A stretch of 64,000 nucleotides of DNA, from positions 11,436 to 75,435 of the forward strand of contig JBHHVU010000011.1 in the NCBI GenBank assembly GCA_046754465.1, read 5' to 3'. Positions 42,553 to 55,149 of the stretch are shown piece by piece (positions within the stretch are counted from its first letter, which is position 1; each line of letters opens with the position of its first letter). Source of the stretch: Nitrospinaceae bacterium (GTDB lineage: Bacteria > Nitrospinota > Nitrospinia > Nitrospinales > VA-1). Position numbers and translations under genes: made by a program. The notes beneath the pieces are model-generated. The model did not search any database and was not told the DNA's origin. It worked only from the letters and a program-made list of their open reading frames with translations.

Positions 42553-43746
42553 GTGAATACCCACAAATACCTCCTTCGATTATTTTTGATCATCCTTTCT
42601 GGGGGCGTTTTATTTCTTTCCCACCATGCGGCCTCGGGGGAAGAAAATCCGCCAACGAAAAAAATTCCCGATGTTCAATTGAATCCTCTGGGGATGTCCC
42701 CCAGCGCGGAATGCGGGAAATGTCATAAGGATATTTATAAAAGTTGGGAAAACTCACTCCACGCCCGCGCGACGAATAATCCGGTATTCTGGGCCGCCTT
42801 CCTGCAGGCCCACTTCAAAAATGTGGAAGTGGCCAATAATTCCTGTCTCCGCTGCCACGCTCCGGCCGCAAAATTTCTTTACGATTTCAAATTGGAAAAA
42901 CCCCTCACCCGGGAAGGCATCAATTGCGATTTTTGCCATTCCATTTCCAGCCTGGAACCGGCGGGTTCGCCCTCGCCGTACCGGCATGAATTCGACCTGG
43001 TCAAACAGGGCCCCCTGAAAAACGTCGAATCCCCCGTACACCGCACCCGGTACAACCCCTTGTTCAAACAATCCCGCTTTTGCGCCGGATGCCATGAACT
43101 CACCACCCCTGGTGGAACCCCCTTGATTGAAACCTTCTCCGAATGGCAGCAGGGTCCTTACCCGGCCAAGGGCATCCATTGCCAGAATTGTCACATGAGA
43201 AAAATACCCGGAAAAATTGTCGGAGAGGGAATCAAACAAACACCGGAGACTGAAATCAGCTCTCACGATATCGCCGGCGGCCACTCCCTTTCGATGAGGG
43301 GGGCATCATTAAAGCTGGAAATCAAGGATATCCGGATCAACAAACAGAAAATGGAGGTCGTCCTCGATTTGACCAACGTGGGCGCGGGACACAAAATTCC
43401 CACGGGACTGCCTTCCAAAAAACTGATGCTCCGCGTGGGGGTGCAAACCACCGATGGGGAAACCATCCGTGTTAAAGAAAAGATTTATCATAAGCACATT
43501 GTGGACTCCAGGGGCAACCTCATCGACAACGATGCCGACCTCATGCTGGGAAGGGATTTAAAAATGATTTTCGACAATCGGATCGGGCCCATGGAAAGAC
43601 GGCGAGAACATTTCACGTTTTTCGTTCCCCATCCCCAGGACAAACGTGTGTTCGCCAGGGTTTTCTACATCCACAACCCGCAAATCATTCAGCCCATGCC
43701 CATCCAGATCAAGATGCAGGAAGTCACGGCATCGCCAGGACAGTGA
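42553..43746 (+). CDS. Exported pentaheme c-type cytochrome (c554-like N-terminus, beta-sandwich C-terminus)
   Basis: CGKCH, CLRCH, CDFCH, CAGCH, CQNCH; W..S.HA; NVGAGHKIPTG. Confidence 0.85.
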   Translation: MNTHKYLLRLFLIILSGGVLFLSHHAASGEENPPTKKIPDVQLNPLGMSPSAECGKCHKDIYKSWENSLHARATNNPVFWAAFLQAHFKNVEVANNSCLRCHAPAAKFLYDFKLEKPLTREGINCDFCHSISSLEPAGSPSPYRHEFDLVKQGPLKNVESPVHRTRYNPLFKQSRFCAGCHELTTPGGTPLIETFSEWQQGPYPAKGIHCQNCHMRKIPGKIVGEGIKQTPETEISSHDIAGGHSLSMRGASLKLEIKDIRINKQKMEVVLDLTNVGAGHKIPTGLPSKKLMLRVGVQTTDGETIRVKEKIYHKHIVDSRGNLIDNDADLMLGRDLKMIFDNRIGPMERRREHFTFFVPHPQDKRVFARVFYIHNPQIIQPMPIQIKMQEVTASPGQ

Positions 43747-44200: not shown

Positions 44201-44896
44201 ATGAAAAAACTTTTCAAAAAATGGATCGCGGCGGTTTGGGACTGGGTGGATTATCGAACCGGCATCAAGGATTTGATCCGCGAGCAACTGACGGAATACC
44301 GGGTTCCCCCCCGGTTGAACAAATGGTATTCCCTGGGAGGCCTGGCCCTTTTTGTCTTTGGAATACAATTGGTCACGGGGGTATTGCTGCTCGTCTATTA
44401 TGTGCCGTCCACCGAAGAGGCGTTTGACAGTGTCCAGCGCATCATGCTTGAAATTCCCTATGGCTGGCTCATGCGCACCTCCCATGCCGCTGGAGCCCAT
44501 TTGATGGTCATGGTGGTCTTCCTGCACATGGTGAGCGTCATATTCATTGGGTCCTATAAAAAGCCGAGGGAGCTCACCTGGCTGACTGGCTGCGGCCTGG
44601 TTTTCATGACGCTGGGAATCTGCTTCACCGGTTACCTGCTGCCCTGGAGCCAGCTCTCCTACTGGGCAACGACGGTGGCGACCAATATTCCCGCGCCCAT
44701 TCCCGTTATCGGACCCATGATTGTCCGGTTGATTCGCGGCGGGGATCAGATCAATCCCGACACCCTGAACCGTTTTTTTGCCCTGCACGTCGTCGTCATT
44801 CCCGCGGTCATGTTGGCCCTGGTGGGAATTCATCTGTACCTGATCCGCGTGCTGGGAATTTCGGACCCGCATCAGGCGGATGAGGAAACTGAGTAA
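44201..44896 (+). CDS. petB: Cytochrome b6-type N-terminal subunit
   Basis: Four heme His ligands, GSYKKPRELTW, FTGYLLPWSQ.SYWA, RFFALH. Confidence 0.93.
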   Translation: MKKLFKKWIAAVWDWVDYRTGIKDLIREQLTEYRVPPRLNKWYSLGGLALFVFGIQLVTGVLLLVYYVPSTEEAFDSVQRIMLEIPYGWLMRTSHAAGAHLMVMVVFLHMVSVIFIGSYKKPRELTWLTGCGLVFMTLGICFTGYLLPWSQLSYWATTVATNIPAPIPVIGPMIVRLIRGGDQINPDTLNRFFALHVVVIPAVMLALVGIHLYLIRVLGISDPHQADEETE

Positions 44897-44898
44897 TC

Positions 44899-45306
44899 AT
44901 GTACAAAAAACCAAAATACTTGAAGGGAACCCGGTTTTTCCCAAGCTTTATCATGGAAGACGTTCTGGTCATCTTCATCTTCCTGGCGATTTTCTTCACA
45001 GGGGTCTTCTTCTTTCCGGAATGGATCATTTCCGGGGAGTCGGAAATGCCGGCGGACCCCTTCAATACGCCGGAGCACATCAAACCCGAATGGTATTTTC
45101 TGGCGTCCTATCAGTTTTTGAAAATCATTCCATCGGAATTCGCTGCGCTTATTTTAATGACCCTGGGAATCATGGGATTTATTTTCTTACCCTTCCTGGA
45201 CCGGTCGGAGGAAAAAAGAATCCAAAAGCGGCCTCTTTTTTTATTACTGGTAATCACTTTCATCATTTTCTTCGTGGGGTTGACCCTATGGGGCGCTTTT
45301 TCCTGA
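44899..45306 (+). CDS. petD: Cytochrome b subunit IV (PEWY-containing)
   Basis: PADPFNTPEHIKPEWYF, three TMs, LPFLDRS. Confidence 0.92.
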   Translation: MYKKPKYLKGTRFFPSFIMEDVLVIFIFLAIFFTGVFFFPEWIISGESEMPADPFNTPEHIKPEWYFLASYQFLKIIPSEFAALILMTLGIMGFIFLPFLDRSEEKRIQKRPLFLLLVITFIIFFVGLTLWGAFS

Positions 45307-45314
45307 GAGGGACC

Positions 45315-46154
45315 ATCGTCGGGCAATCCACCGGCCACCGATTTTATGCCTGGCGGCGGAAAGCCTTGTGGGTTGTGGTCTTGACCTTGTTCCCGCCCGC
45401 ACCGGCGCAACCGGCGTTTCATCCGGAATCTCCCAACTCCTGTATTGAATGCCATCGCTCCCTTGAAGATAAGCGTTTGTCCGAGCCGGTGATCCAATGG
45501 TCAAAAAGTATCCATAATGAAGTCGGCAACACCTGCGACGGGTGCCATGGGGGCGATCCTCAAGACAAATCAACCGGCGCCATGTCTAAAAAAAACGGCT
45601 TTTACCCGGCACCGGAAGACGAACAAGTCGCCTCGTTTTGCGGCAAATGCCATGCGGAAATATCAAAGGATTACCTGGAAAGCACTCATGGAATGATGAG
45701 TAACCCCAACTGCGTCACTTGCCATGGGTCTCATTCCATCCGGAGAATCAGCATCAATATTATCAAGCCGGACAAATGCACCGAGTGCCATGATTATGAA
45801 AATCCGGAAAAACTGCTGAAAATCCTGCTATCCCTTCACAAGGAGTTTCACGAGGCGGAAGCTCAGTTAAAATTGATCCGTGGGGTTCCCATCCACCCCC
45901 TGAAAAAAGAACTGGAAAAAACCTGGAAAGACCTCCGCCAGGTCCGGATGGTCAGCCACACGTTCGACCTACCCACCATCGAAGTGGAAGCGAAAAAGGT
46001 TCACATGTCCATGCTGGAAACCAGGAACGAGATTGACCGGTTAACACAATTGACGCAGGCCAGAAAACGATGGGGATTCCTGGTGGTTTTCTTATTCATG
46101 GGGTTGGCCCTCTTGACCTACTGGTACAACAAAAAGCCGGATCCAGGGGAATGA
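45315..46154 (+). CDS. Pentaheme c-type cytochrome with C-terminal membrane anchor
   Basis: CIECH, CDGCH, CGKCH, CVTCH, CTECH; C-terminal TM; start uncertain (ATC 45315 or TTG 45366). Confidence 0.85.
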   Translation: MVGQSTGHRFYAWRRKALWVVVLTLFPPAPAQPAFHPESPNSCIECHRSLEDKRLSEPVIQWSKSIHNEVGNTCDGCHGGDPQDKSTGAMSKKNGFYPAPEDEQVASFCGKCHAEISKDYLESTHGMMSNPNCVTCHGSHSIRRISINIIKPDKCTECHDYENPEKLLKILLSLHKEFHEAEAQLKLIRGVPIHPLKKELEKTWKDLRQVRMVSHTFDLPTIEVEAKKVHMSMLETRNEIDRLTQLTQARKRWGFLVVFLFMGLALLTYWYNKKPDPGE

Positions 46155-46665: not shown

Positions 46666-47940
46666 ATGCATAAAATCATATCCCTTATAATAATTGCAGT
46701 ATTTCTCGGTGGGGCCTCTCCCGTCCAGGAAACGGGGGACAGTCCGTTCCGGAAGAAGATGAACGAATTCATTTCCATAGCCCTGGAAAATAATCCCCAA
46801 CTCAAGGAGTCTCAAAACCGGATCAAGCAATTTAAGGAAGTTCCCTCCCAGGCCGGTTCCCTGGACGATCCCATTTTGCGGTTTGAATTGAAAAACCTCC
46901 CGTCCGACTCCTTTGCATTCGACCAGGACCCCGGCACGCAAAAAAAAATATCCGTGTCACAAAAATTCCCTTATCCCGGAAAACTGATGTTGCGCTCCGA
47001 AATAGCGGGAAAAAATGTGGCCATCGCCGAGCACAGTTTGGAGGACTTGAAACTGAAAATCATTAAGGATGTCAAAACATCCTATTTTGAACTGAGTTTC
47101 ATTCTGGCCTCCATTCAAATCACCCGGAAAAATAAGGACCTGCTGGAACAGTTTGTCACCATCGCCGAGACCAAATACTCCGTGGGCAAGGGCATTCAAC
47201 AGGATGTATTGAAAGCCCAGGTGGAGCTGTCCAAAATAATCGATGAATTGATTCGGCTCAACGAACTCAAGGAATTGGAACAGGCCCGACTGAACACCCT
47301 CATGGATCGGTTACCCCAGGAACCTCTGAGCATTCCGGACGGAATCACCCATACCCCCTTCACCTACAATCTGGTGGAATTACAAAAACTATCGGAAGAA
47401 TTCCGTCCTACCCTGAAGGAAATTCGTTCCCTGAAAGAGCGGTTTCAAGTATCCAAGCGGCTGGCGGAAAAGGAATACTATCCCGATTTCAACGTAGGTT
47501 TCAAATACGGGCAGCGTGAGAACGGACTTGTCCAGGACCGGCCCGACTTCGTTTCCGCCTACGTGGCCATCAACATCCCCATCTGGTACAAAACCAAGCA
47601 AAGACGCAAGGTGGCCGAAGAGTCTTTCAAAATCATGAAGATTCAGGAAGCTTACAATGATGCCCGAAATCAAATTTTCCTGGGTATCAAGGAATTATTC
47701 GAGGAGGAAATCCGGGAGGAACAAACAATCGAACTCATAGGAAAAGCCATTATTCCACAAGCACGGCAATCCCTGGAATCTGCCGTGGCGGGTTATGGCG
47801 TGGACAAGGTGGATTTCCTGACCCTGCTGGACAATCAGATAACCCTGTTCAATTGGGAAATCAAGTACCAACGGGAGCTGGCATCTTATGAAAAAACACT
47901 GGCGAATCTGGAAAGCGTCGTCGGCAAAAGCTTGTTTTAA
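46666..47940 (+). CDS. TolC-family outer membrane factor of a heavy-metal RND system (CusC-like)
   Basis: ALENNPQL, SQKFPYPGKL, KYSVGKG.QQDVLKAQVE, YYPDF, G.VDFLTLLD. Confidence 0.9.
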   Translation: MHKIISLIIIAVFLGGASPVQETGDSPFRKKMNEFISIALENNPQLKESQNRIKQFKEVPSQAGSLDDPILRFELKNLPSDSFAFDQDPGTQKKISVSQKFPYPGKLMLRSEIAGKNVAIAEHSLEDLKLKIIKDVKTSYFELSFILASIQITRKNKDLLEQFVTIAETKYSVGKGIQQDVLKAQVELSKIIDELIRLNELKELEQARLNTLMDRLPQEPLSIPDGITHTPFTYNLVELQKLSEEFRPTLKEIRSLKERFQVSKRLAEKEYYPDFNVGFKYGQRENGLVQDRPDFVSAYVAINIPIWYKTKQRRKVAEESFKIMKIQEAYNDARNQIFLGIKELFEEEIREEQTIELIGKAIIPQARQSLESAVAGYGVDKVDFLTLLDNQITLFNWEIKYQRELASYEKTLANLESVVGKSLF

Positions 47941-48017: not shown

Positions 48018-49988
48018 ATGACCGATATCGACGATTTACTTAAGGAAAAAATAACCGAAAACTCCTCTTCCCGGGAAGAAGAGCAAGCAGAGGTGTTATA
48101 TCCTTCCGAACCAGAACTGGAATCCAGCAATTTCGAGGAAGAGGTCCATCAATCCCGGTTCCGGCTTTTTTTGACAAGAACCGGAAATTCCATGGCCAGG
48201 CTCTGGAAGGGAATAAAGTCCCGCTTCAAGAATGAGATTCCGGAGGAGGATTATCTCTCTGATTCCTCCGACGCCGATATTCTTTTCCCCAAGGAAGAAG
48301 ATGAGAAGGAGGCTGCCTCCAAAAAGAAGAAAAGGGGTCACGGTTTTTTAAAAATAATTGGCTGGCCCGTTTTGCTCATTATAGTGTTCCTGCTGGGATT
48401 TTTCACCCGCCCGGACATGATGGATAACACCCTGAAAAACGTGGAAAAGTGGAGCGCATTGGTTTTCAAGGAAATGGGTCCCATCCAGGAAAAAGTCTCC
48501 GAAAAGGTCACGGAAATCATCGATAAGAACGTGCCCGTTAAAGGGCAGGCCCCCGCGGGTTCCGGAGACGGGGAAAAACCCCAAAGAAAAATCAAATATT
48601 GGAAAGCGCCCATGACGCCGGGATTCATCTCTGACAAACCCGGCAAATCCCCCATGGGCATGGACCTGGTTCCTGTCTACGAAGAAGAGGAAGCGGTCAA
48701 ACCAAAGCGGAAAATCAAATATTGGAAAGCGCCCATGACGCCGGGATTCATCTCTGACAAACCCGGAAAGTCCCCCATGGGCATGGACCTGATTCCCGTC
48801 TATGAAGATGAAGCCAACACCGGTCCGGGGATCCGGATCAATCCCAACATGGTCCAGAACATCGGAATAAAAACGGCAAAAGTAAAAAGGACCATCCTCA
48901 CACGGGAGGTGCGGACGGTGGGGCATCTCACTTATGATGAAAGGTTGGTCACCCACATCCACACCAAGTATGAGGGATGGGCGGAAAAATTGTATGTCGA
49001 CTTCAGGGGACAGGAGGTAAAAAAGGACGACCTTCTGCTTGAAATTTACAGTCCGGAACTGGTCTCCACCCAGGAAGAACTGCTTCTGGCCCTGAAATAC
49101 AATCAATCCCTCAAAAACAGCTCGTTCAAGGAGATTTCCGGGGGGGCCAAAAGGTTGCTGGAGTCCACCCGGCGTAGACTGGAGTTGTTTGATGTCCCGG
49201 AACATCAAATCGAAGCCTTGATCCGGGACAAAAAGATCACCAAAACCATGCACATCCATTCGCCATTCCGGGGTTTCGTGACCGAGAAACACGTTTTGCA
49301 GGGGATGTATGTCAAACCGGGCATGAACCTTTATACCATTGCCGACCTGTCCAACATCTGGGTTTTGGCCGACGTTTATGAATATGAATTGCCCTGGGTC
49401 AAACTCGGCCAGCCCGCCCAGATGACCCTGTCCTACTTCCCCGGAAAAAAGTTCAAGGGAAAGGTGACCTATGTCGACCCCTTCCTGGACCCCAAGACCC
49501 GGACCGTCAAGGTGAGAATGGAATTCGACAACCCCGAATGGAAACTCAAACCAGACATGTATGCCAACGTCAATCTGGAATCCATCATAGCCAAGCGGGC
49601 GGTCGCGGTTCCGGAAGATGCAATCATTCGCGCGGGAGAGAAAGACCTGGTCATCATAAGAAATTCGTCGGGTGGATTTGAACCTCGTCGAATTATTCTG
49701 GGAGCGCAGGCCAAGGGATATTACCAAGTCCTCAAGGGCCTCCGCGGCGGCGAGGAAGTGGTCACCTCCTCAAACTTCCTGATCGATTCCGAAAGCAATC
49801 TCGGGGTGGCACTCAGTAAAATGCAGTCAACCAAACCCCCATTGGGGAAAAACCCCCCGAAGAAAACCCCGTCACTTAAAAAGAAGATGACCATGAAAAA
49901 AGAGGAAGGGGGAAAAATGGATCTGTCCAAAATGAAGGGAAAACAAAATCAACCCACCGGCATGGTAAAAATAAAGCCGGAACCATGA
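48018..49988 (+). CDS. cusB: CusB-type periplasmic adaptor with two Met-rich metal-binding domains
   Basis: YSPELVSTQEE, IADLSNIWV, DPKTRTVKVR, LKPDMY, FLIDSES. Confidence 0.9.
   Translation: MTDIDDLLKEKITENSSSREEEQAEVLYPSEPELESSNFEEEVHQSRFRLFLTRTGNSMARLWKGIKSRFKNEIPEEDYLSDSSDADILFPKEEDEKEAASKKKKRGHGFLKIIGWPVLLIIVFLLGFFTRPDMMDNTLKNVEKWSALVFKEMGPIQEKVSEKVTEIIDKNVPVKGQAPAGSGDGEKPQRKIKYWKAPMTPGFISDKPGKSPMGMDLVPVYEEEEAVKPKRKIKYWKAPMTPGFISDKPGKSPMGMDLIPVYEDEANTGPGIRINPNMVQNIGIKTAKVKRTILTREVRTVGHLTYDERLVTHIHTKYEGWAEKLYVDFRGQEVKKDDLLLEIYSPELVSTQEELLLALKYNQSLKNSSFKEISGGAKRLLESTRRRLELFDVPEHQIEALIRDKKITKTMHIHSPFRGFVTEKHVLQGMYVKPGMNLYTIADLSNIWVLADVYEYELPWVKLGQPAQMTLSYFPGKKFKGKVTYVDPFLDPKTRTVKVRMEFDNPEWKLKPDMYANVNLESIIAKRAVAVPEDAIIRAGEKDLVIIRNSSGGFEPRRIILGAQAKGYYQVLKGLRGGEEVVTSSNFLIDSESNLGVALSKMQSTKPPLGKNPPKKTPSLKKKMTMKKEEGGKMDLSKMKGKQNQPTGMVKIKPEP
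48588..48808 (+). repeat. Tandem near-identical ~98-bp repeats (period 123 bp) encoding KIKYWKAPMTPGFISDKPGKSPMGMDL(V/I)PVYE
   Basis: Copies at ~48588-48685 and ~48711-48808 differ at only a few positions. Confidence 0.95.
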
Positions 49989-50012: not shown

Positions 50013-50981
50013 GTGAACTCTTTTATTTTCCAAAGGCCGCATATTTTATGGAAGATTTTTGGGATAGCGGGCCTCACCCTTTTCGTCCTGATCCTTTCTT
50101 TTTTTAAGGGTGGCTTCCTGGAAAAATTCCACACCGATGCCATGATCGCTTCCTTTTTCCTGGTGGTGGTTTTGTGCGGCCTCCTTTTTTGGGATTTTTT
50201 GAAAATCATGCAGGTTCAACAGGAAAAAATTAATGCGCTGATGGGGATAAGGTTATCCCTGACTTCCCTCATCGACCTCAAGGATTCCTATACGGAAGGT
50301 CATTCCAAGCATGTCAGGAATTTGGCCAGGAAATTCGCAGAATTTTTAAAACTGTCTCCCACCGAAATTGAGGACATAAGTACGGCCGCGGAGTTGCACG
50401 ATATCGGTAAAATTGGCGTCCCGGACTCTATTTTGAAAAAAAATGGAACATTGAATGAAGAGGAATTTTTGGAAATTAAAAAACATCCTCAACGTGGGTC
50501 GGATGCCCTTAAACCCTTAAAAGGATTCGAAAACGTAACTCAAATCATCCGGAACCATCATGAGAGATACGACGGCACGGGCTATCCGAGGGGCCTTTCG
50601 GGAGAGCGGATTCCCTTTGGGGCCCGGGTGCTGGGCATATTGGACACCTATGACGCCATGGTCTACAACCGACCCTACCGGAAAGCGAAGACCATTAGGG
50701 AGTTTCTCGACACCCTGGAAAAAGGCATGGGCTCCCAATTTGACCCGAGCCTGGCGGCCGCTTTCCATCAGTTTTTGCTGCAAAATTCGGAGAAGAATCA
50801 TAAGGCCTATGACCCTGTTTGCGGGATGGAAGTCCACCCCAAAACCACCGCTTTCAAATCTCTTTATCAAAACCAAACTTATATATTTTGTTCTGAAATT
50901 TGCTTGGAGGAATTCAACCGGAATCCCGGCAAATACGTTTTCAAAACCATGCCGACCGATACGCCCCCGCGCTCCCGGTAA
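50013..50981 (+). CDS. Membrane HD-GYP phosphodiesterase with C-terminal YHS/TRASH metal-binding domain
   Basis: Two TMs; TEGHS, LHDIGK, HHERYDGTGYP, DTYDAM..RPYR; DPVCGMEV...YIFCSEICLEEF..NP.KY. Confidence 0.9.
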   Translation: MNSFIFQRPHILWKIFGIAGLTLFVLILSFFKGGFLEKFHTDAMIASFFLVVVLCGLLFWDFLKIMQVQQEKINALMGIRLSLTSLIDLKDSYTEGHSKHVRNLARKFAEFLKLSPTEIEDISTAAELHDIGKIGVPDSILKKNGTLNEEEFLEIKKHPQRGSDALKPLKGFENVTQIIRNHHERYDGTGYPRGLSGERIPFGARVLGILDTYDAMVYNRPYRKAKTIREFLDTLEKGMGSQFDPSLAAAFHQFLLQNSEKNHKAYDPVCGMEVHPKTTAFKSLYQNQTYIFCSEICLEEFNRNPGKYVFKTMPTDTPPRSR

Positions 50982-50986
50982 ACCGC

Positions 50987-53900
50987 ATGCTTAATAAAGT
51001 TATCGCCGCCTCATTGCAGAATAGATTCATGGTTATCCTGGGCACCCTGTTTGTCGTTGTCTTTGGACTCTATTCCATGCAACGAACCCCCCTGGATGCG
51101 ATTCCGGATTTAAGCGATGTGCAGGTCATCATCTTCACCGAATACCCCGGACAGGCCCCGCAAATCGTGGAGGACCAGATCACTTACCCACTAACCACCA
51201 CCATGCTGGCCGTCCCCTTTGCCACAACCGTCCGTGGATATTCTTTTTTTGGATTTTCTTTCGTCTACATCATATTCGAGGACGGGACGGATTTGTACTG
51301 GGCCCGCAGCCGGGTCTTGGAACAATTGAATTTTGTCGCCGGCCGGTTGCCGCCGGGGGTCAATCCTTCCTTGGGACCGGACGCCACGGGAGTCGGCTGG
51401 GTGTATGAATATGCCCTGGTGGATCGAACCGGGAAAAACGACCTGTCGCAATTGCGATCCATCCAGGACTGGTACCTGCGTTATGAACTTCAGACCGTTC
51501 CCGGCCTCTCCGAAGTGGCCAGTATCGGCGGTTACGTCAAACAATACCAGATCGAGGTGGACCCCAACAAACTGCTCGCCTACAACATCCCACTGCATAA
51601 AATCATCCGGGCCATCAAGCGCAGCAACAATGACGTCGGCGGACGACTGCTGGAAATGTCGGAAACCGAATTCATGGTCCGTGGCCTGGGTTACATCAAA
51701 AACCTGAAGGACATCAATGAAATTCCCGTGGGGGTGGATAGCGAAGGAACCCCCATACAGGTTCGGGATGTGGCCAACGTACAACTCGGTCCGGAATTGC
51801 GGCGCGGACTGGTGGAGCTCAACGGCGAAGGGGAAGTGGCCGGCGGGATCGTCATAATGCGTTTTGGGGAAAACGCGCTGAAGGTCATCAATGGGGTCAA
51901 GAAAAAACTCGAAACCTTAAAAGCCGGCCTTCCCGAAGGTGTCGAAATCATCCCCGTTTATGACCGATCCTCCCTAATATACCGGGCGATCGACACCCTC
52001 AAGGAAAAATTAATCGAAGAGATTGTTGCGGTAGCCGTGATTTGCATGGTCTTCCTGGTCCATTTACGCTCGGCCCTCGTGGCGGTCATTACTCTGCCGG
52101 TGGGCATTTTGATGGCCTTTATCGTCATGCAGAAACAAGGGCTCTCGGCCAATATCATGTCCCTGGGAGGAATCGCGATCGCGATTGGCGCCATGATAGC
52201 GGGGGCCATCGTCATGATCGAAAACGCGCACAAACACCTGGAACACGACCGCGGCAAGAAAGACCATTGGCAAATCATCTACGAAGCCTCCATCGAAGTG
52301 GGACCCGCCCTATTTTTCAGCCTGTTGATCATCACGGTATCCTTCCTTCCGGTCTTCACCCTTCAGGCCCAGGAAGGCCGGCTGTTTTCCCCCCTTGCGT
52401 TCACCAAGACCTATTCCATGGCGGCTTCCGCCATTCTCGCCATCACCCTCGTCCCAGTTTTGATGGGATATTTCGTCCGTGGACGCATTCTTCCCGAAAA
52501 GAAGAATCCACTCAACTGGCTATTGGTCACCATTTACCGCCCCATCATCTGGCTGGTTTTAAGAATGAAACTGGTCGTTATCATGGTAGCGGTCCTGGTG
52601 GTCCTGGTAACAATCATTCCCCTGAAGCGGCTGGGTTCGGAATTCATGCCGCCGTTGAACGAAGGAGATATCCTCTATATGCCCACGACACTGCCGGGGA
52701 TCTCCATTACAAAAGCCAAGGAATTGTTGCAGCAAACCGATAAAATCATCCGGCAGTTCCCGGAAGTTCACCACGTCTTCGGTAAAATCGGGCGGGCGGA
52801 AACGGCCACCGACCCCGCCCCCTTGAGCATGGTGGAAACCACCATCATGCTCAAACCGGAAGATCAGTGGAGAGAGGGAATGACAACCAAAAAACTCATC
52901 GATGAGTTGAACGCGGCCATTGATATCCCCGGCGTGACCAATGCCTGGACCATGCCCATCAAAACCCGCATCGATATGTTATCCACCGGAATCAAGACCC
53001 CGGTGGGAATCAAGATTGCCGGTGACGATCTGAACGTCCTTCAAAAACTGGGCGAACAAATTGAGTCGGTGGTCCGGAACATTCCGGGAACGCTCAGTGT
53101 TTTTTCCGAAAGGGTGGTGGGAGGAAATTATTTTGATTTTGAAATCAGCCGGGAAGAGGCCGCCCGATACGGGCTCACCATGGGGGATGTCCAGGACATT
53201 ATCCAAACCGCCATCGGAGGAATGAATATCACCACTACCATCGAGGGATTGGAACGTTACCCCGTCAATTTGCGGTACAGCCGGGACCTTCGTAACGATT
53301 TCAACAAGCTGCAACGGGTCCTGATTCCCACGCCGAGAGGGGAACATATTCCCATGGCCCAGGTGGCGAAAATCAAAATCAGGAAGGGGCCTCCCTCGAT
53401 CAAGAGTGAAAACGCCCGGCTCAACGCCTGGATCTATATCGATCTGAAAAACATCGACGTGGGAACCTACGTGGCGAATGCCCAGAAAGTCCTGGCAAGG
53501 GAAATCACCATCCCTCCCGGATACAGCCTCTTTTGGAGCGGCCAGTACGAATACATGGCACGCGCCAAGGAACGGTTAAAAATCGTCCTGCCCTTCACCC
53601 TGATCATCATATTCCTGCTCCTGTACTTCAACTTCAAAAACGTGACCGAGAGTTTGATTGTCATGTTATCCCTGCCTCTGGCTCTGGTGGGGGGTATCTG
53701 GTATATTTACTATTTGCAATATCAATTGAGCGTTGCGGTGGTTGTCGGTTTCATTGCCTTGGCCGGGGTCTCCACGGAAATCGGGGTCCTGGTTTTAGTT
53801 TATATCGATCATGAGATCCAAAGAAAAAAGAACGTCATGGAAATTCGAACCCTAAAGGATTTGCGGCAAATCATCATCCATGGAACTTCCGAACGGGTGC

Positions 53901-54115
53901 GGGCGGTCATGATGACCGCCGCCGCCACCATTGGGGGACTGCTTCCCATCATGTGGGGTCACGGTACCGGTTCCGAGGTCATGAAACGCATCGCCGCTCC
54001 CATGGTGGGAGGGATGGTTTCCGCCACCATCCTGACCCTGATCGTTCTCCCCGCCCTTTACGCTTTTGTCCTGGAACACCGGCTGAAACAATCCGGCAAT
54101 TATTCCCCTCATTAA
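50987..54115 (+). CDS. cusA: CusA/CzcA heavy-metal RND permease (Cu/Ag type, atypical TM4/TM11)
   Basis: PLDAIPDLSDVQVI, LGPDATGVGWVY, YDRS, EGDILYMP, DMLSTGIK, IAAPMVGG; start at ATG 50987. Confidence 0.95.
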   Translation: MLNKVIAASLQNRFMVILGTLFVVVFGLYSMQRTPLDAIPDLSDVQVIIFTEYPGQAPQIVEDQITYPLTTTMLAVPFATTVRGYSFFGFSFVYIIFEDGTDLYWARSRVLEQLNFVAGRLPPGVNPSLGPDATGVGWVYEYALVDRTGKNDLSQLRSIQDWYLRYELQTVPGLSEVASIGGYVKQYQIEVDPNKLLAYNIPLHKIIRAIKRSNNDVGGRLLEMSETEFMVRGLGYIKNLKDINEIPVGVDSEGTPIQVRDVANVQLGPELRRGLVELNGEGEVAGGIVIMRFGENALKVINGVKKKLETLKAGLPEGVEIIPVYDRSSLIYRAIDTLKEKLIEEIVAVAVICMVFLVHLRSALVAVITLPVGILMAFIVMQKQGLSANIMSLGGIAIAIGAMIAGAIVMIENAHKHLEHDRGKKDHWQIIYEASIEVGPALFFSLLIITVSFLPVFTLQAQEGRLFSPLAFTKTYSMAASAILAITLVPVLMGYFVRGRILPEKKNPLNWLLVTIYRPIIWLVLRMKLVVIMVAVLVVLVTIIPLKRLGSEFMPPLNEGDILYMPTTLPGISITKAKELLQQTDKIIRQFPEVHHVFGKIGRAETATDPAPLSMVETTIMLKPEDQWREGMTTKKLIDELNAAIDIPGVTNAWTMPIKTRIDMLSTGIKTPVGIKIAGDDLNVLQKLGEQIESVVRNIPGTLSVFSERVVGGNYFDFEISREEAARYGLTMGDVQDIIQTAIGGMNITTTIEGLERYPVNLRYSRDLRNDFNKLQRVLIPTPRGEHIPMAQVAKIKIRKGPPSIKSENARLNAWIYIDLKNIDVGTYVANAQKVLAREITIPPGYSLFWSGQYEYMARAKERLKIVLPFTLIIIFLLLYFNFKNVTESLIVMLSLPLALVGGIWYIYYLQYQLSVAVVVGFIALAGVSTEIGVLVLVYIDHEIQRKKNVMEIRTLKDLRQIIIHGTSERVRAVMMTAAATIGGLLPIMWGHGTGSEVMKRIAAPMVGGMVSATILTLIVLPALYAFVLEHRLKQSGNYSPH

Positions 54116-54186: not shown

Positions 54187-55149
54187 TTGGAGATGGATTT
54201 GAAAAAGCCCAAATCAGAAAACCTCACCGCCACCATTGGCGGAATCACGTTGCATTTGAGCCGTTCGGACCACACTCAACCGGAATGGATCGGACAGGAC
54301 GAAGTGCTTAAACAAACGCTCGCCTGCTGGCTGGTGGTGGGTGAGAAAGACCTGCCGCTGTCCCCGCGGATCGTGGGGATGCCCGGAATCGGAAAAACCA
54401 CGCTCGCCATGGCCGCGGCCATGAGGCGAAAACAACCCCTTTATATTTTTCAGTGCACCAGCGATACCCGTCCCGAGGACTTGCTAGTGACCCCGGTGCT
54501 TGCCGAATCTGGAAAAATCTCCTATCACGCCTCACCCCTGGTCAGCGCCATGATCACGGGAGGAATCTGCGTCCTCGACGAAGGCAACCGGATGAATGAA
54601 AAAAGCTGGGCCTCGCTGGCCCCCTTGCTCGACCACCGGCGGTATGTGGAATCCATCATCGCCGGAATTCAAATCCACGCCCACAAGGAATTCCGGGCCT
54701 GCGTCACCATGAACCGGGATGAATCAGTGTTCGAGGTTCCGGACTACATCCTTTCCCGCCTACAACCGACCCTGCAGTTGAACATGCCAAGCCATCAGGA
54801 TGAACTGGGCATCTTGAAATACCATCTGCCTTTTGTGGAGTCGGACCTCCTGAACATGACCGTCGGATTCCTGCAAAAATCACATCAACTGGATCTGGAT
54901 TTTTCGCCCCGGGACGGTATCCACATTCTTCAATACGCCCTCAAACGGCTCAGCCAGGAAAAGGATCATCCCCTTTCCAAGGATGAGGCCTGGCGGGAAG
55001 CGGTGTGCAAGGTTTTGGGAGAAGACGCCCTGGACCTGGATGGATTGGCCGCCAGAAAACAAAGGGCCCTGGGAACGGAGGGGCTGCCGATGGGTTTGGG
55101 GGATTTCTTTTTCAACGAGGACAGTCCCCTGCATCCCGACAGCGACTAG
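54187..55149 (+). CDS. MoxR/CbbQ-like AAA+ ATPase
   Basis: Walker [21 protein letters not shown], Walker B VLDEGNR, TMN sensor. Confidence 0.85.

Follow-up and report, generated by a model that had tools for sequence, protein, structure and literature searches.

An Ala405/Ala973 form of the CusA-type metal efflux pump in a Nitrospinaceae bacterium and in a second marine lineage

The cusA gene, its operon and its relay residues

We analyzed a stretch of 64,000 nucleotides from a Nitrospinaceae bacterium (contig JBHHVU010000011.1; the whole stretch is hereafter called the window), in which a gene for a CusA-type resistance-nodulation-division (RND) permease lies at 50987..54115 on the + strand and is the last gene of an efflux operon. 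The genes upstream of it, all on the + strand, encode an outer-membrane factor (TolC/CusC-like; 46666..47940; Pfam OEP, E = 2.7e-41, with TolC-family NCBIfam matches), a CusB-type periplasmic adaptor of 656 aa with N-terminal HMBD repeats (48018..49988; Pfam HlyD_D23, E = 1.3e-83; HMBD in two stretches), and a fusion of an HD-GYP-type HD domain to a YHS metal-binding domain (50013..50981; Pfam HD_5, E = 5.9e-44; YHS, E = 5.3e-14). The adaptor matched the NCBIfam CusB subfamily with E = 1.9e-68, under the family cut-off. The CusA thus has both a CusB-type adaptor and an outer-membrane factor beside it, and this gene order is kept in orthologous loci.

The cusA frame is open from a TTG at 50900, and its likely start is the ATG at 50987, which sits 6 nt past the stop of the upstream gene; the stop codon is the TAA at 54113-54115. 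The frame encodes 1042 aa; it is intact, as the preliminary description of this DNA had stated. The product scored 1270.6 bits on NCBIfam TIGR00914 (CusA/CzcA heavy-metal RND; cut-off 701.45), with protein residues 1-1036 aligned to profile positions 1-1043 of 1051. Pumps of the CusA type, for Cu(I) and Ag(I), form class HME4. The phmmer alignment with the Escherichia coli CusA chains of the PDB ran from end to end (E = 0, 1307-1310 bits), and identity to E. coli CusA, taken from the annotated genome, was 56% over the full length. On sequence grounds, the gene is a real, intact CusA-type Cu(I)/Ag(I) RND pump gene in a complete operon.

E. coli CusA (PDB 3K07, 3T51, 3NE5, 7KF5-8), the pump of CusCFBA, served as the reference for individual residues, and its numbering is used for the reference positions. 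Codon 405 of the window gene (52199..52201) is GCG and encodes Ala at the position of the conserved Asp of transmembrane helix (TM) 4, E. coli D405. In TM11, the window protein reads RVRAVMMT where the solved E. coli chains read RVRPKAMT, so that P983 is replaced by A973 (GCG, 53903-53905) and K984 by V974 (GTC, 53906-53908). In TM10, GVSTEIG aligns with GVAAEFG, and the equivalent of E939 is kept as E931 (53777..53779), the sole relay carboxylate remaining in the membrane core. Also kept are E412, the Glu of the 'IEN' motif at the end of TM4 (52220..52222), T977 (E. coli T987; with A978 at 53915..53920), and K474, which aligns with E. coli K482 (52406..52408), the periplasmic end of a water wire proposed in a passage of PMC8092243. 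The preliminary description had recognized the Ala and Val substitutions and the retained Glu, and the phmmer/PDB and E. coli CusA alignments bear it out.

The metal-handling residues of the window CusA are those of the E. coli protein. The Met triad is present as M565 (E. coli M573; 52679..52681), M615 (M623) and M664 (M672; 52976..52978), and E617, equivalent to E625 of the metal site, follows M615 and V616 (M615 to E617, 52829..52837). All six methionines of the transmembrane pairs are present (M391-M1009, M403-M486 and M410-M501 in E. coli numbering, pairs as given in a passage of PMC8092243), and so are the periplasmic charged residues R83, E567, D617, R669 and K678. The Met sites claimed in the preliminary description were therefore found. 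Besides the two Ala residues, the window CusA differs from E. coli CusA in changes that are clade-wide, namely the loss of K984 (Val in the window), M944 to Val, and the periplasmic pair M271/M755 to L/N. Its operon differs from the E. coli cus operon in having HMBD repeats in the adaptor, the HD/YHS gene between cusB and cusA, and no separate cusF gene. The best-scoring PDB chain was 4dnt_A, an engineered E. coli CusA that itself carries Ala at 405 and owes its top rank to that residue; this laboratory mutant has a K984/P983 background, whereas the natural forms described here have P983A and no Lys.

Relay residues among relatives and a second Ala405 lineage

The residue states were read in three sets. 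The ortholog set comprised the best 120 proteins matching the window CusA (74-100% identity), with full-length subsets of 117 rows without the window or 118 rows. In the family set (154 rows), 150 sequences that each represent a cluster at 50% identity were joined by E. coli CusA, two paralogs and the window protein, and the locus set comprised 111 RND open reading frames (ORFs) from fetched loci. The source names of the closest proteins were Nitrospinaceae. Asp405 was found in 118 of the 120 closest orthologs, the exceptions being the window protein (Ala) and an ortholog termed P0007 (Val). It was found in 149 of the 150 family representatives, the remaining one having no residue in the column, and in all 111 locus ORFs; in the 154-row alignment, the window was the only row covering the column that did not have it. 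Across the metal RND pumps sampled, the TM4 Asp is the one conserved relay residue.

The other positions behaved differently. Glu occupied the E939 position in 117/117 orthologs, and Pro occupied position 973 in 117/117 full-length orthologs and in 119/120 of the closest set. Lys was absent from the K984 position in all 120 closest orthologs; it occurred in 59 of 154 family rows and 31 of 111 locus ORFs, with Asp at 405 in each case. Position 974 was Ile in 115 and Met in 2 of the 117 full-length orthologs, and Val in the window only. A large, mostly marine CusA branch that includes the window gene thus has Ile in place of the 'proton sweeper' Lys984, and Lys is not a defining residue of this branch. 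These Lys-less orthologs (Nitrospinaceae, Woeseiaceae and other marine bacteria) share with the window gene the operon, E939 and Ile or Val at K984, the Nitrospinaceae ones at 74-86% identity, and differ from it in keeping D405 and P983. E939 and K984 are also dispensable in CzrA and NczA of Caulobacter, working metal exporters of the heavy-metal efflux RND group for divalent cations; Table 1 of PMC3637150 lists D405 as the only one of the three relay residues that they keep. These two pumps lack the Met triad, and their loss pattern is opposite to that of the window CusA. Because none of the 120 orthologs has Lys and many metal RND pumps lack it too, the loss of K984 is old, clade-wide, ordinary and already known in kind.

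These states redraw an earlier picture. The preliminary description had proposed a paired loss of D405 and K984 under selection, each by at least two substitutions. Since the orthologs encode D405 as GAT or GAC, the change to GCG does take two base changes; Val974 derives from Ile by one (ATC to GTC). Mapping of both states showed a rare loss of D405 and a loss of K984 that extends over the whole clade, so the proposed pair does not stand. The idea of a paired, selected change in TM4 and TM11 fared better, with P983 as the partner instead of K984. P973A is private to the window gene within its clade and is its second non-conservative private change; the part of TM11 around P983 contacts D405 in published structures, according to a passage of PMC8092243. 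On the alignments, D405A and not the K984 loss is the anomaly, and P983A is its true partner.

We also looked for signs of decay and of compensation in the window protein. Across the 118 full-length rows, 384 columns were invariant, and the window protein deviated at only five near-invariant columns (S75A, V174L, V189I, D405A and P973A), a number typical for terminal branches of its length. The protein is therefore not in general decay. The ratio of nonsynonymous to synonymous substitution rates (dN/dS) against six orthologs was 0.03-0.08, the same range as between ortholog pairs, at a saturated dS; this check, which the preliminary description had suggested, is thus consistent with constraint only as an average. 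The clade-rare charged residues of the window protein were K383, K948 and H992 only, all outside hydrophobic segments. Compared with the clade alignment, the window CusA has gained no membrane-embedded charged residue, and the compensating charge near the lost residues that would have spoken against the preliminary description was not found.

A second occurrence of the double change came from a scan of metagenome contigs, for which a degenerate nucleotide pattern of the TM4 motif allowed Ala or Val at codon 405. The scan returned two loci, both encoding CusA homologs that share 60-63% identity with the window protein, with AIGAMVAAAVVMIEN in TM4, A405, the Glu of E931, A973, I974 and the TM11 sequence RVRAI. 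A follow-up protein search with one of these loci returned a best 120 proteins, several with the source names Woeseia or Woeseiaceae, giving 122 sequences in all. At positions 405/931/973/974, five of them read A,E,A,I and the other 117 read D,E,P,I or V; intermediates with one of the two changes alone were not found among the 122. Named members of this Woeseiaceae-type clade are L120, L121 and L122 (P0393, P0392 and P0394, respectively), of which L121 is partial. The five Ala405 sequences were monophyletic with all columns included (SH-aLRT 100) and nested among Asp405 sequences. Without 15 diagnostic columns, the partial L121 fell outside the group in the free quick tree, and a tree with one clade was 9.5 log-likelihood units better than that free quick tree (p-AU, from the approximately unbiased (AU) test, 0.68). 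The Ala405 clade branches from within Asp-bearing sequences, at a distance of 1.4 substitutions per site from the clade of the window protein, and on the trees its D405A and P983A are therefore independent in origin from those of the window gene.

The Woeseiaceae-type Ala405 clade, the older of the two lineages, is under purifying selection. Within it, three pairs gave dN/dS values of 0.067-0.090 at an unsaturated dS of 0.70-1.17, and the pairs used different Ala codons at both sites. Nine Asp405 pairs at dS 0.74-1.16 gave 0.019-0.073. The window protein and the five clade members retain every other functional residue, except that the partial L121 does not extend over R83. Hydrophobic segments account for 33% of the protein and contain 11 of the 13 diagnostic sites of the clade (binomial P = 2e-4). 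Its own membrane changes include I408V, F346S and A364L, where the window has I974V and V978A instead. In one genome, G110, the Ala405 gene is the only Met-triad CusA-type pump found among six matches to ACR_tran (Pfam PF00873). It follows an OEP gene and a CusB gene with HMBD and CusF domains, and the operon is intact; as in the window, it has no separate cusF gene. Among 201 Woeseiaceae-family genomes searched, 126 had a match, and the Ala405 form occurred in 1 of the 30 loci read.

The 20 private sites of the window and the 13 diagnostic sites of the second clade have 405, 436 and 973 in common. With 405 removed as the group-defining site, the probability of at least two overlaps was 0.019, and the chance of finding 973 among 12 of 1041 sites was 1.2%. 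Together with P0007, described below, seven D405-less sequences were found, six with Ala and one with Val, all on a background without Lys at 984. We propose a natural D405A + P983A group, defined by Ala405, Ala at P983, a residue other than Lys at 984, and a kept E939, to which the window CusA belongs. Among 261 wider homologs, eight combined P983A with Asp405, and this suggests that P983A can precede, and allow, the loss of Asp. The TM11 form 'RVRAV...TAAA' was considered as a marker of D405 loss and rejected, since other lineages, among them L055, L058, L067, L068 and P0126, combine such TM11 forms with D405. Among the matches listed in a full-text literature search, no title or opening of an abstract described a natural CusA without D405, and the match for CusA D405A concerned MtrD.

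P0007 (source name Candidatus Nitromaritima sp. SCGC AAA799-C22) differs in kind; apart from the window CusA, it is the one ortholog that lacks Asp405. It carries D405V, keeps Pro973, and has N413S in the invariant 'EN' motif. It showed seven deviations at near-invariant columns, and its departures include E190V, F457L, E605D and N882Y. P0007 and the window protein share Ala978 and Ala979; Ala978 occurs in these two only, 114 of 116 other sequences having Val. They have four shared rare residues, against 0-3 in controls. A two-row clade of the window and P0007 gave an AU p of 0.42, and the FastTree and IQ-TREE trees do not settle whether the two are sisters. A CusB partner from its single-cell genome was absent from the best 120 CusB matches, and none of the 80 loci from the contig scan came from its genome. 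P0007 may represent a gene in decay or a copy with errors, or it may be what remains of a loss shared with the window gene.

The genome of the window also encodes a canonical CusA, 58% identical to the window protein, with AIGAMIDAAIVMIEN in TM4 and RVRPKIMT in TM11. It belongs to a second cus operon (G000:C21:36000-47809, L119), which consists of two tandem outer-membrane-factor genes, CusB, and the canonical CusA with D405, E939 and K984. This paralog type was found in 3 of 70 family genomes searched, namely G000, which is the genome of the window, G006 and G007. Pairs of CusA-type genes were seen elsewhere too; two Zetaproteobacteria loci from metagenome-assembled genomes (MAGs; L041 and L042) each have two CusA-type ORFs in tandem, all of them with Asp405 and with Ile in place of K984.

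A possible single-carboxylate proton path and its alternatives

Most likely, the double change is no lesion but gives a viable alternative form of the proton path, because the second clade keeps both changes under purifying selection and its pump is the only CusA-type pump found in one genome. Our preferred reading, held at about even odds, is that the window CusA functions as a pump whose proton path has been re-wired to a single carboxylate. We infer that transport is retained and that the proton is carried by E931. The Lys-less (Ile984) background would have come first, followed in the window gene by D405A in TM4 and P983A in TM11. E931 in TM10 would then act as the single protonatable site, with T977, K474 and E412 retained around the path, and TM11, without its Pro, may pack differently against TM4 in the space left by the Asp side chain. 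Metal handling would be unchanged, with the Met triad, the Met pairs and the periplasmic charged relay in place. More generally, and at rather less than an even chance, RND metal pumps may be able to run without the TM4 Asp, with D405A and P983A on a Lys-less background and the TM10 Glu alone, a combination found at least two times in marine bacteria. A pump with such a two-residue switch could possibly have a different proton-to-metal ratio or pH optimum.

Several observations weigh against this interpretation. A passage of PMC8092243, citing earlier work, states that a point mutation of D405 in E. coli CusA abolishes transport. A dead copy could be masked by the canonical operon of the same genome, whose CusA has D405 and K984. 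No RNA run was among those listed for this DNA. The window lineage is represented by one genome of one sample and lacks a close Ala405 relative; its nearest ortholog is 85-86% identical, so that the age of D405A in this lineage cannot be estimated and the change could be recent. The variant is rare, with six Ala and one Val among several hundred homologs read, and P983A is not exclusive to the loss of D405. In the second clade, dN/dS lies at the upper edge of the Asp405 range, and G110 is a MAG of unstated completeness, so that its 'only CusA' is the only one found.

The window gene may instead be a coupling-dead allele, in which a fairly recent, inactivating D405A is masked by the canonical CusCBA operon and a CzcA-like pump and has not yet led to decay. 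We consider this unlikely, yet it is a serious contender. The transport-negative E. coli D405 point mutants reported in PMC8092243 and the engineered Ala405 chain 4dnt count in its favor. The 58%-identical paralog comes with its own OEP and CusB genes and is present in few family genomes, G000 among them; Ala405 in this clade is confined to the window genome among the best 120 orthologs; and with saturated dS, an averaged dN/dS is compatible with a recent loss. A random lesion, however, is not expected to come with P983A, as 973 would fall among the 19 other private sites in about 1.8% of cases by chance. The protein shows no other relaxation, its five near-invariant deviations being typical for the branch length, codon 405 needed two steps, and in G110 the Ala405 pump is the only CusA found.

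Alternatively, the window CusA may have kept a role that does not depend on the relay, for instance by forming mixed trimers with the canonical paralog, as a static plug or regulator of the CusB/outer-membrane channel, or by coupling to another ion. Precedent comes from MdtB2C, where relay mutations are tolerated in one type of subunit. Both the purifying selection that acts in the absence of the Asp and the second CusA of the window genome would fit, but the paralog shares just 58% identity with the window protein and is encoded on a different contig, together with adaptor and channel genes of its own. No second CusA was found in G110, and in the tandem pairs of L041 and L042 neither copy has lost D405. 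A new ion site is further opposed by the lack of a convergent gain of polar or acidic membrane residues in either lineage. We regard this role as improbable.

A joint selected loss of D405 and K984 in the window gene, the reading of the preliminary description, is very improbable and, as stated, is refuted by the ortholog alignment. Both residues are indeed absent from the window CusA, and since all seven D405-less sequences lack Lys, its loss may be a precondition of Asp loss, judging from two or three events. Against a joint loss, Lys is absent in 120/120 orthologs while 118 keep Asp, the combination of Asp with a residue other than Lys is common in the family, including characterised exporters (PMC3637150, Table 1), and Val arose from Ile in one step.

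A sequencing, assembly or binning artefact has next to no chance of being the explanation, because the per-run contigs of four runs, labelled hydrothermal vent metagenome, showed 0 differences at 52199 and 53903-53908 at a depth of 5-29, three non-adjacent codons are involved, one of them needing two base changes, and the reading frame is intact, even though the genome is a single MAG and all four runs with this DNA come from one sample, possibly the assembly's own source, and are not independent. The preliminary description had likewise held that the changes were not an error.

If the window and Woeseiaceae-type pumps do work with E931 alone, the textbook proton path of CusA-type pumps may not be the only workable one. 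In current CusA models, as outlined in a passage of PMC8092243, the TM4 Asp couples proton entry to the movement of TM4 and its methionines. A natural, recurrent and selected form without D405 offers a direct test of which relay parts are required. For annotation, scoring RND pumps as 'dead' on D405 alone, or requiring K984, would misjudge a large marine CusA branch.

Surroundings of the operon

The HD/YHS protein encoded between cusB and cusA has 322 aa, with the YHS domain at the C terminus. Among 13 context loci compared, an HD/YHS gene was inserted at the same place in L116, the closest ortholog locus (55% identity), and in L106, and was absent from the others. The protein could provide a copper-sensing link to cyclic-di-GMP turnover. 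The CusB-type adaptor of the window has an N-terminal extension of about 225 residues with two HMBD heavy-metal-binding motifs, and the adaptor of G110 has one HMBD and a C-terminal CusF domain. At L122 (G110:C28), an ORF with a MerR/CueR-like helix-turn-helix lies 3' of the Ala405 cusA, its family being judged by eye from the N-terminal sequence only.

Downstream of the window cusA, a gene for an AAA_5 (MoxR-like) ATPase (54187-55149, +) begins 72 nt 3' of the operon and overlaps the start of a 673-aa ORF (region to 57026, +) that has no Pfam or NCBIfam match. A functional tie of cusA to the ATPase gene was considered and rejected, because that gene is not adjacent to the orthologs or to the other Ala405 genes; the 673-aa ORF is not adjacent to them either. 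The genes immediately upstream of the efflux operon, all on the + strand, are those for a multihaem protein resembling cytochrome c554 (42553-43746), for a cytochrome b (44201-44896) and for a multihaem c-type cytochrome (44880-46154). A cytochrome b gene and a multihaem gene likewise lie upstream of the efflux operon in L049.

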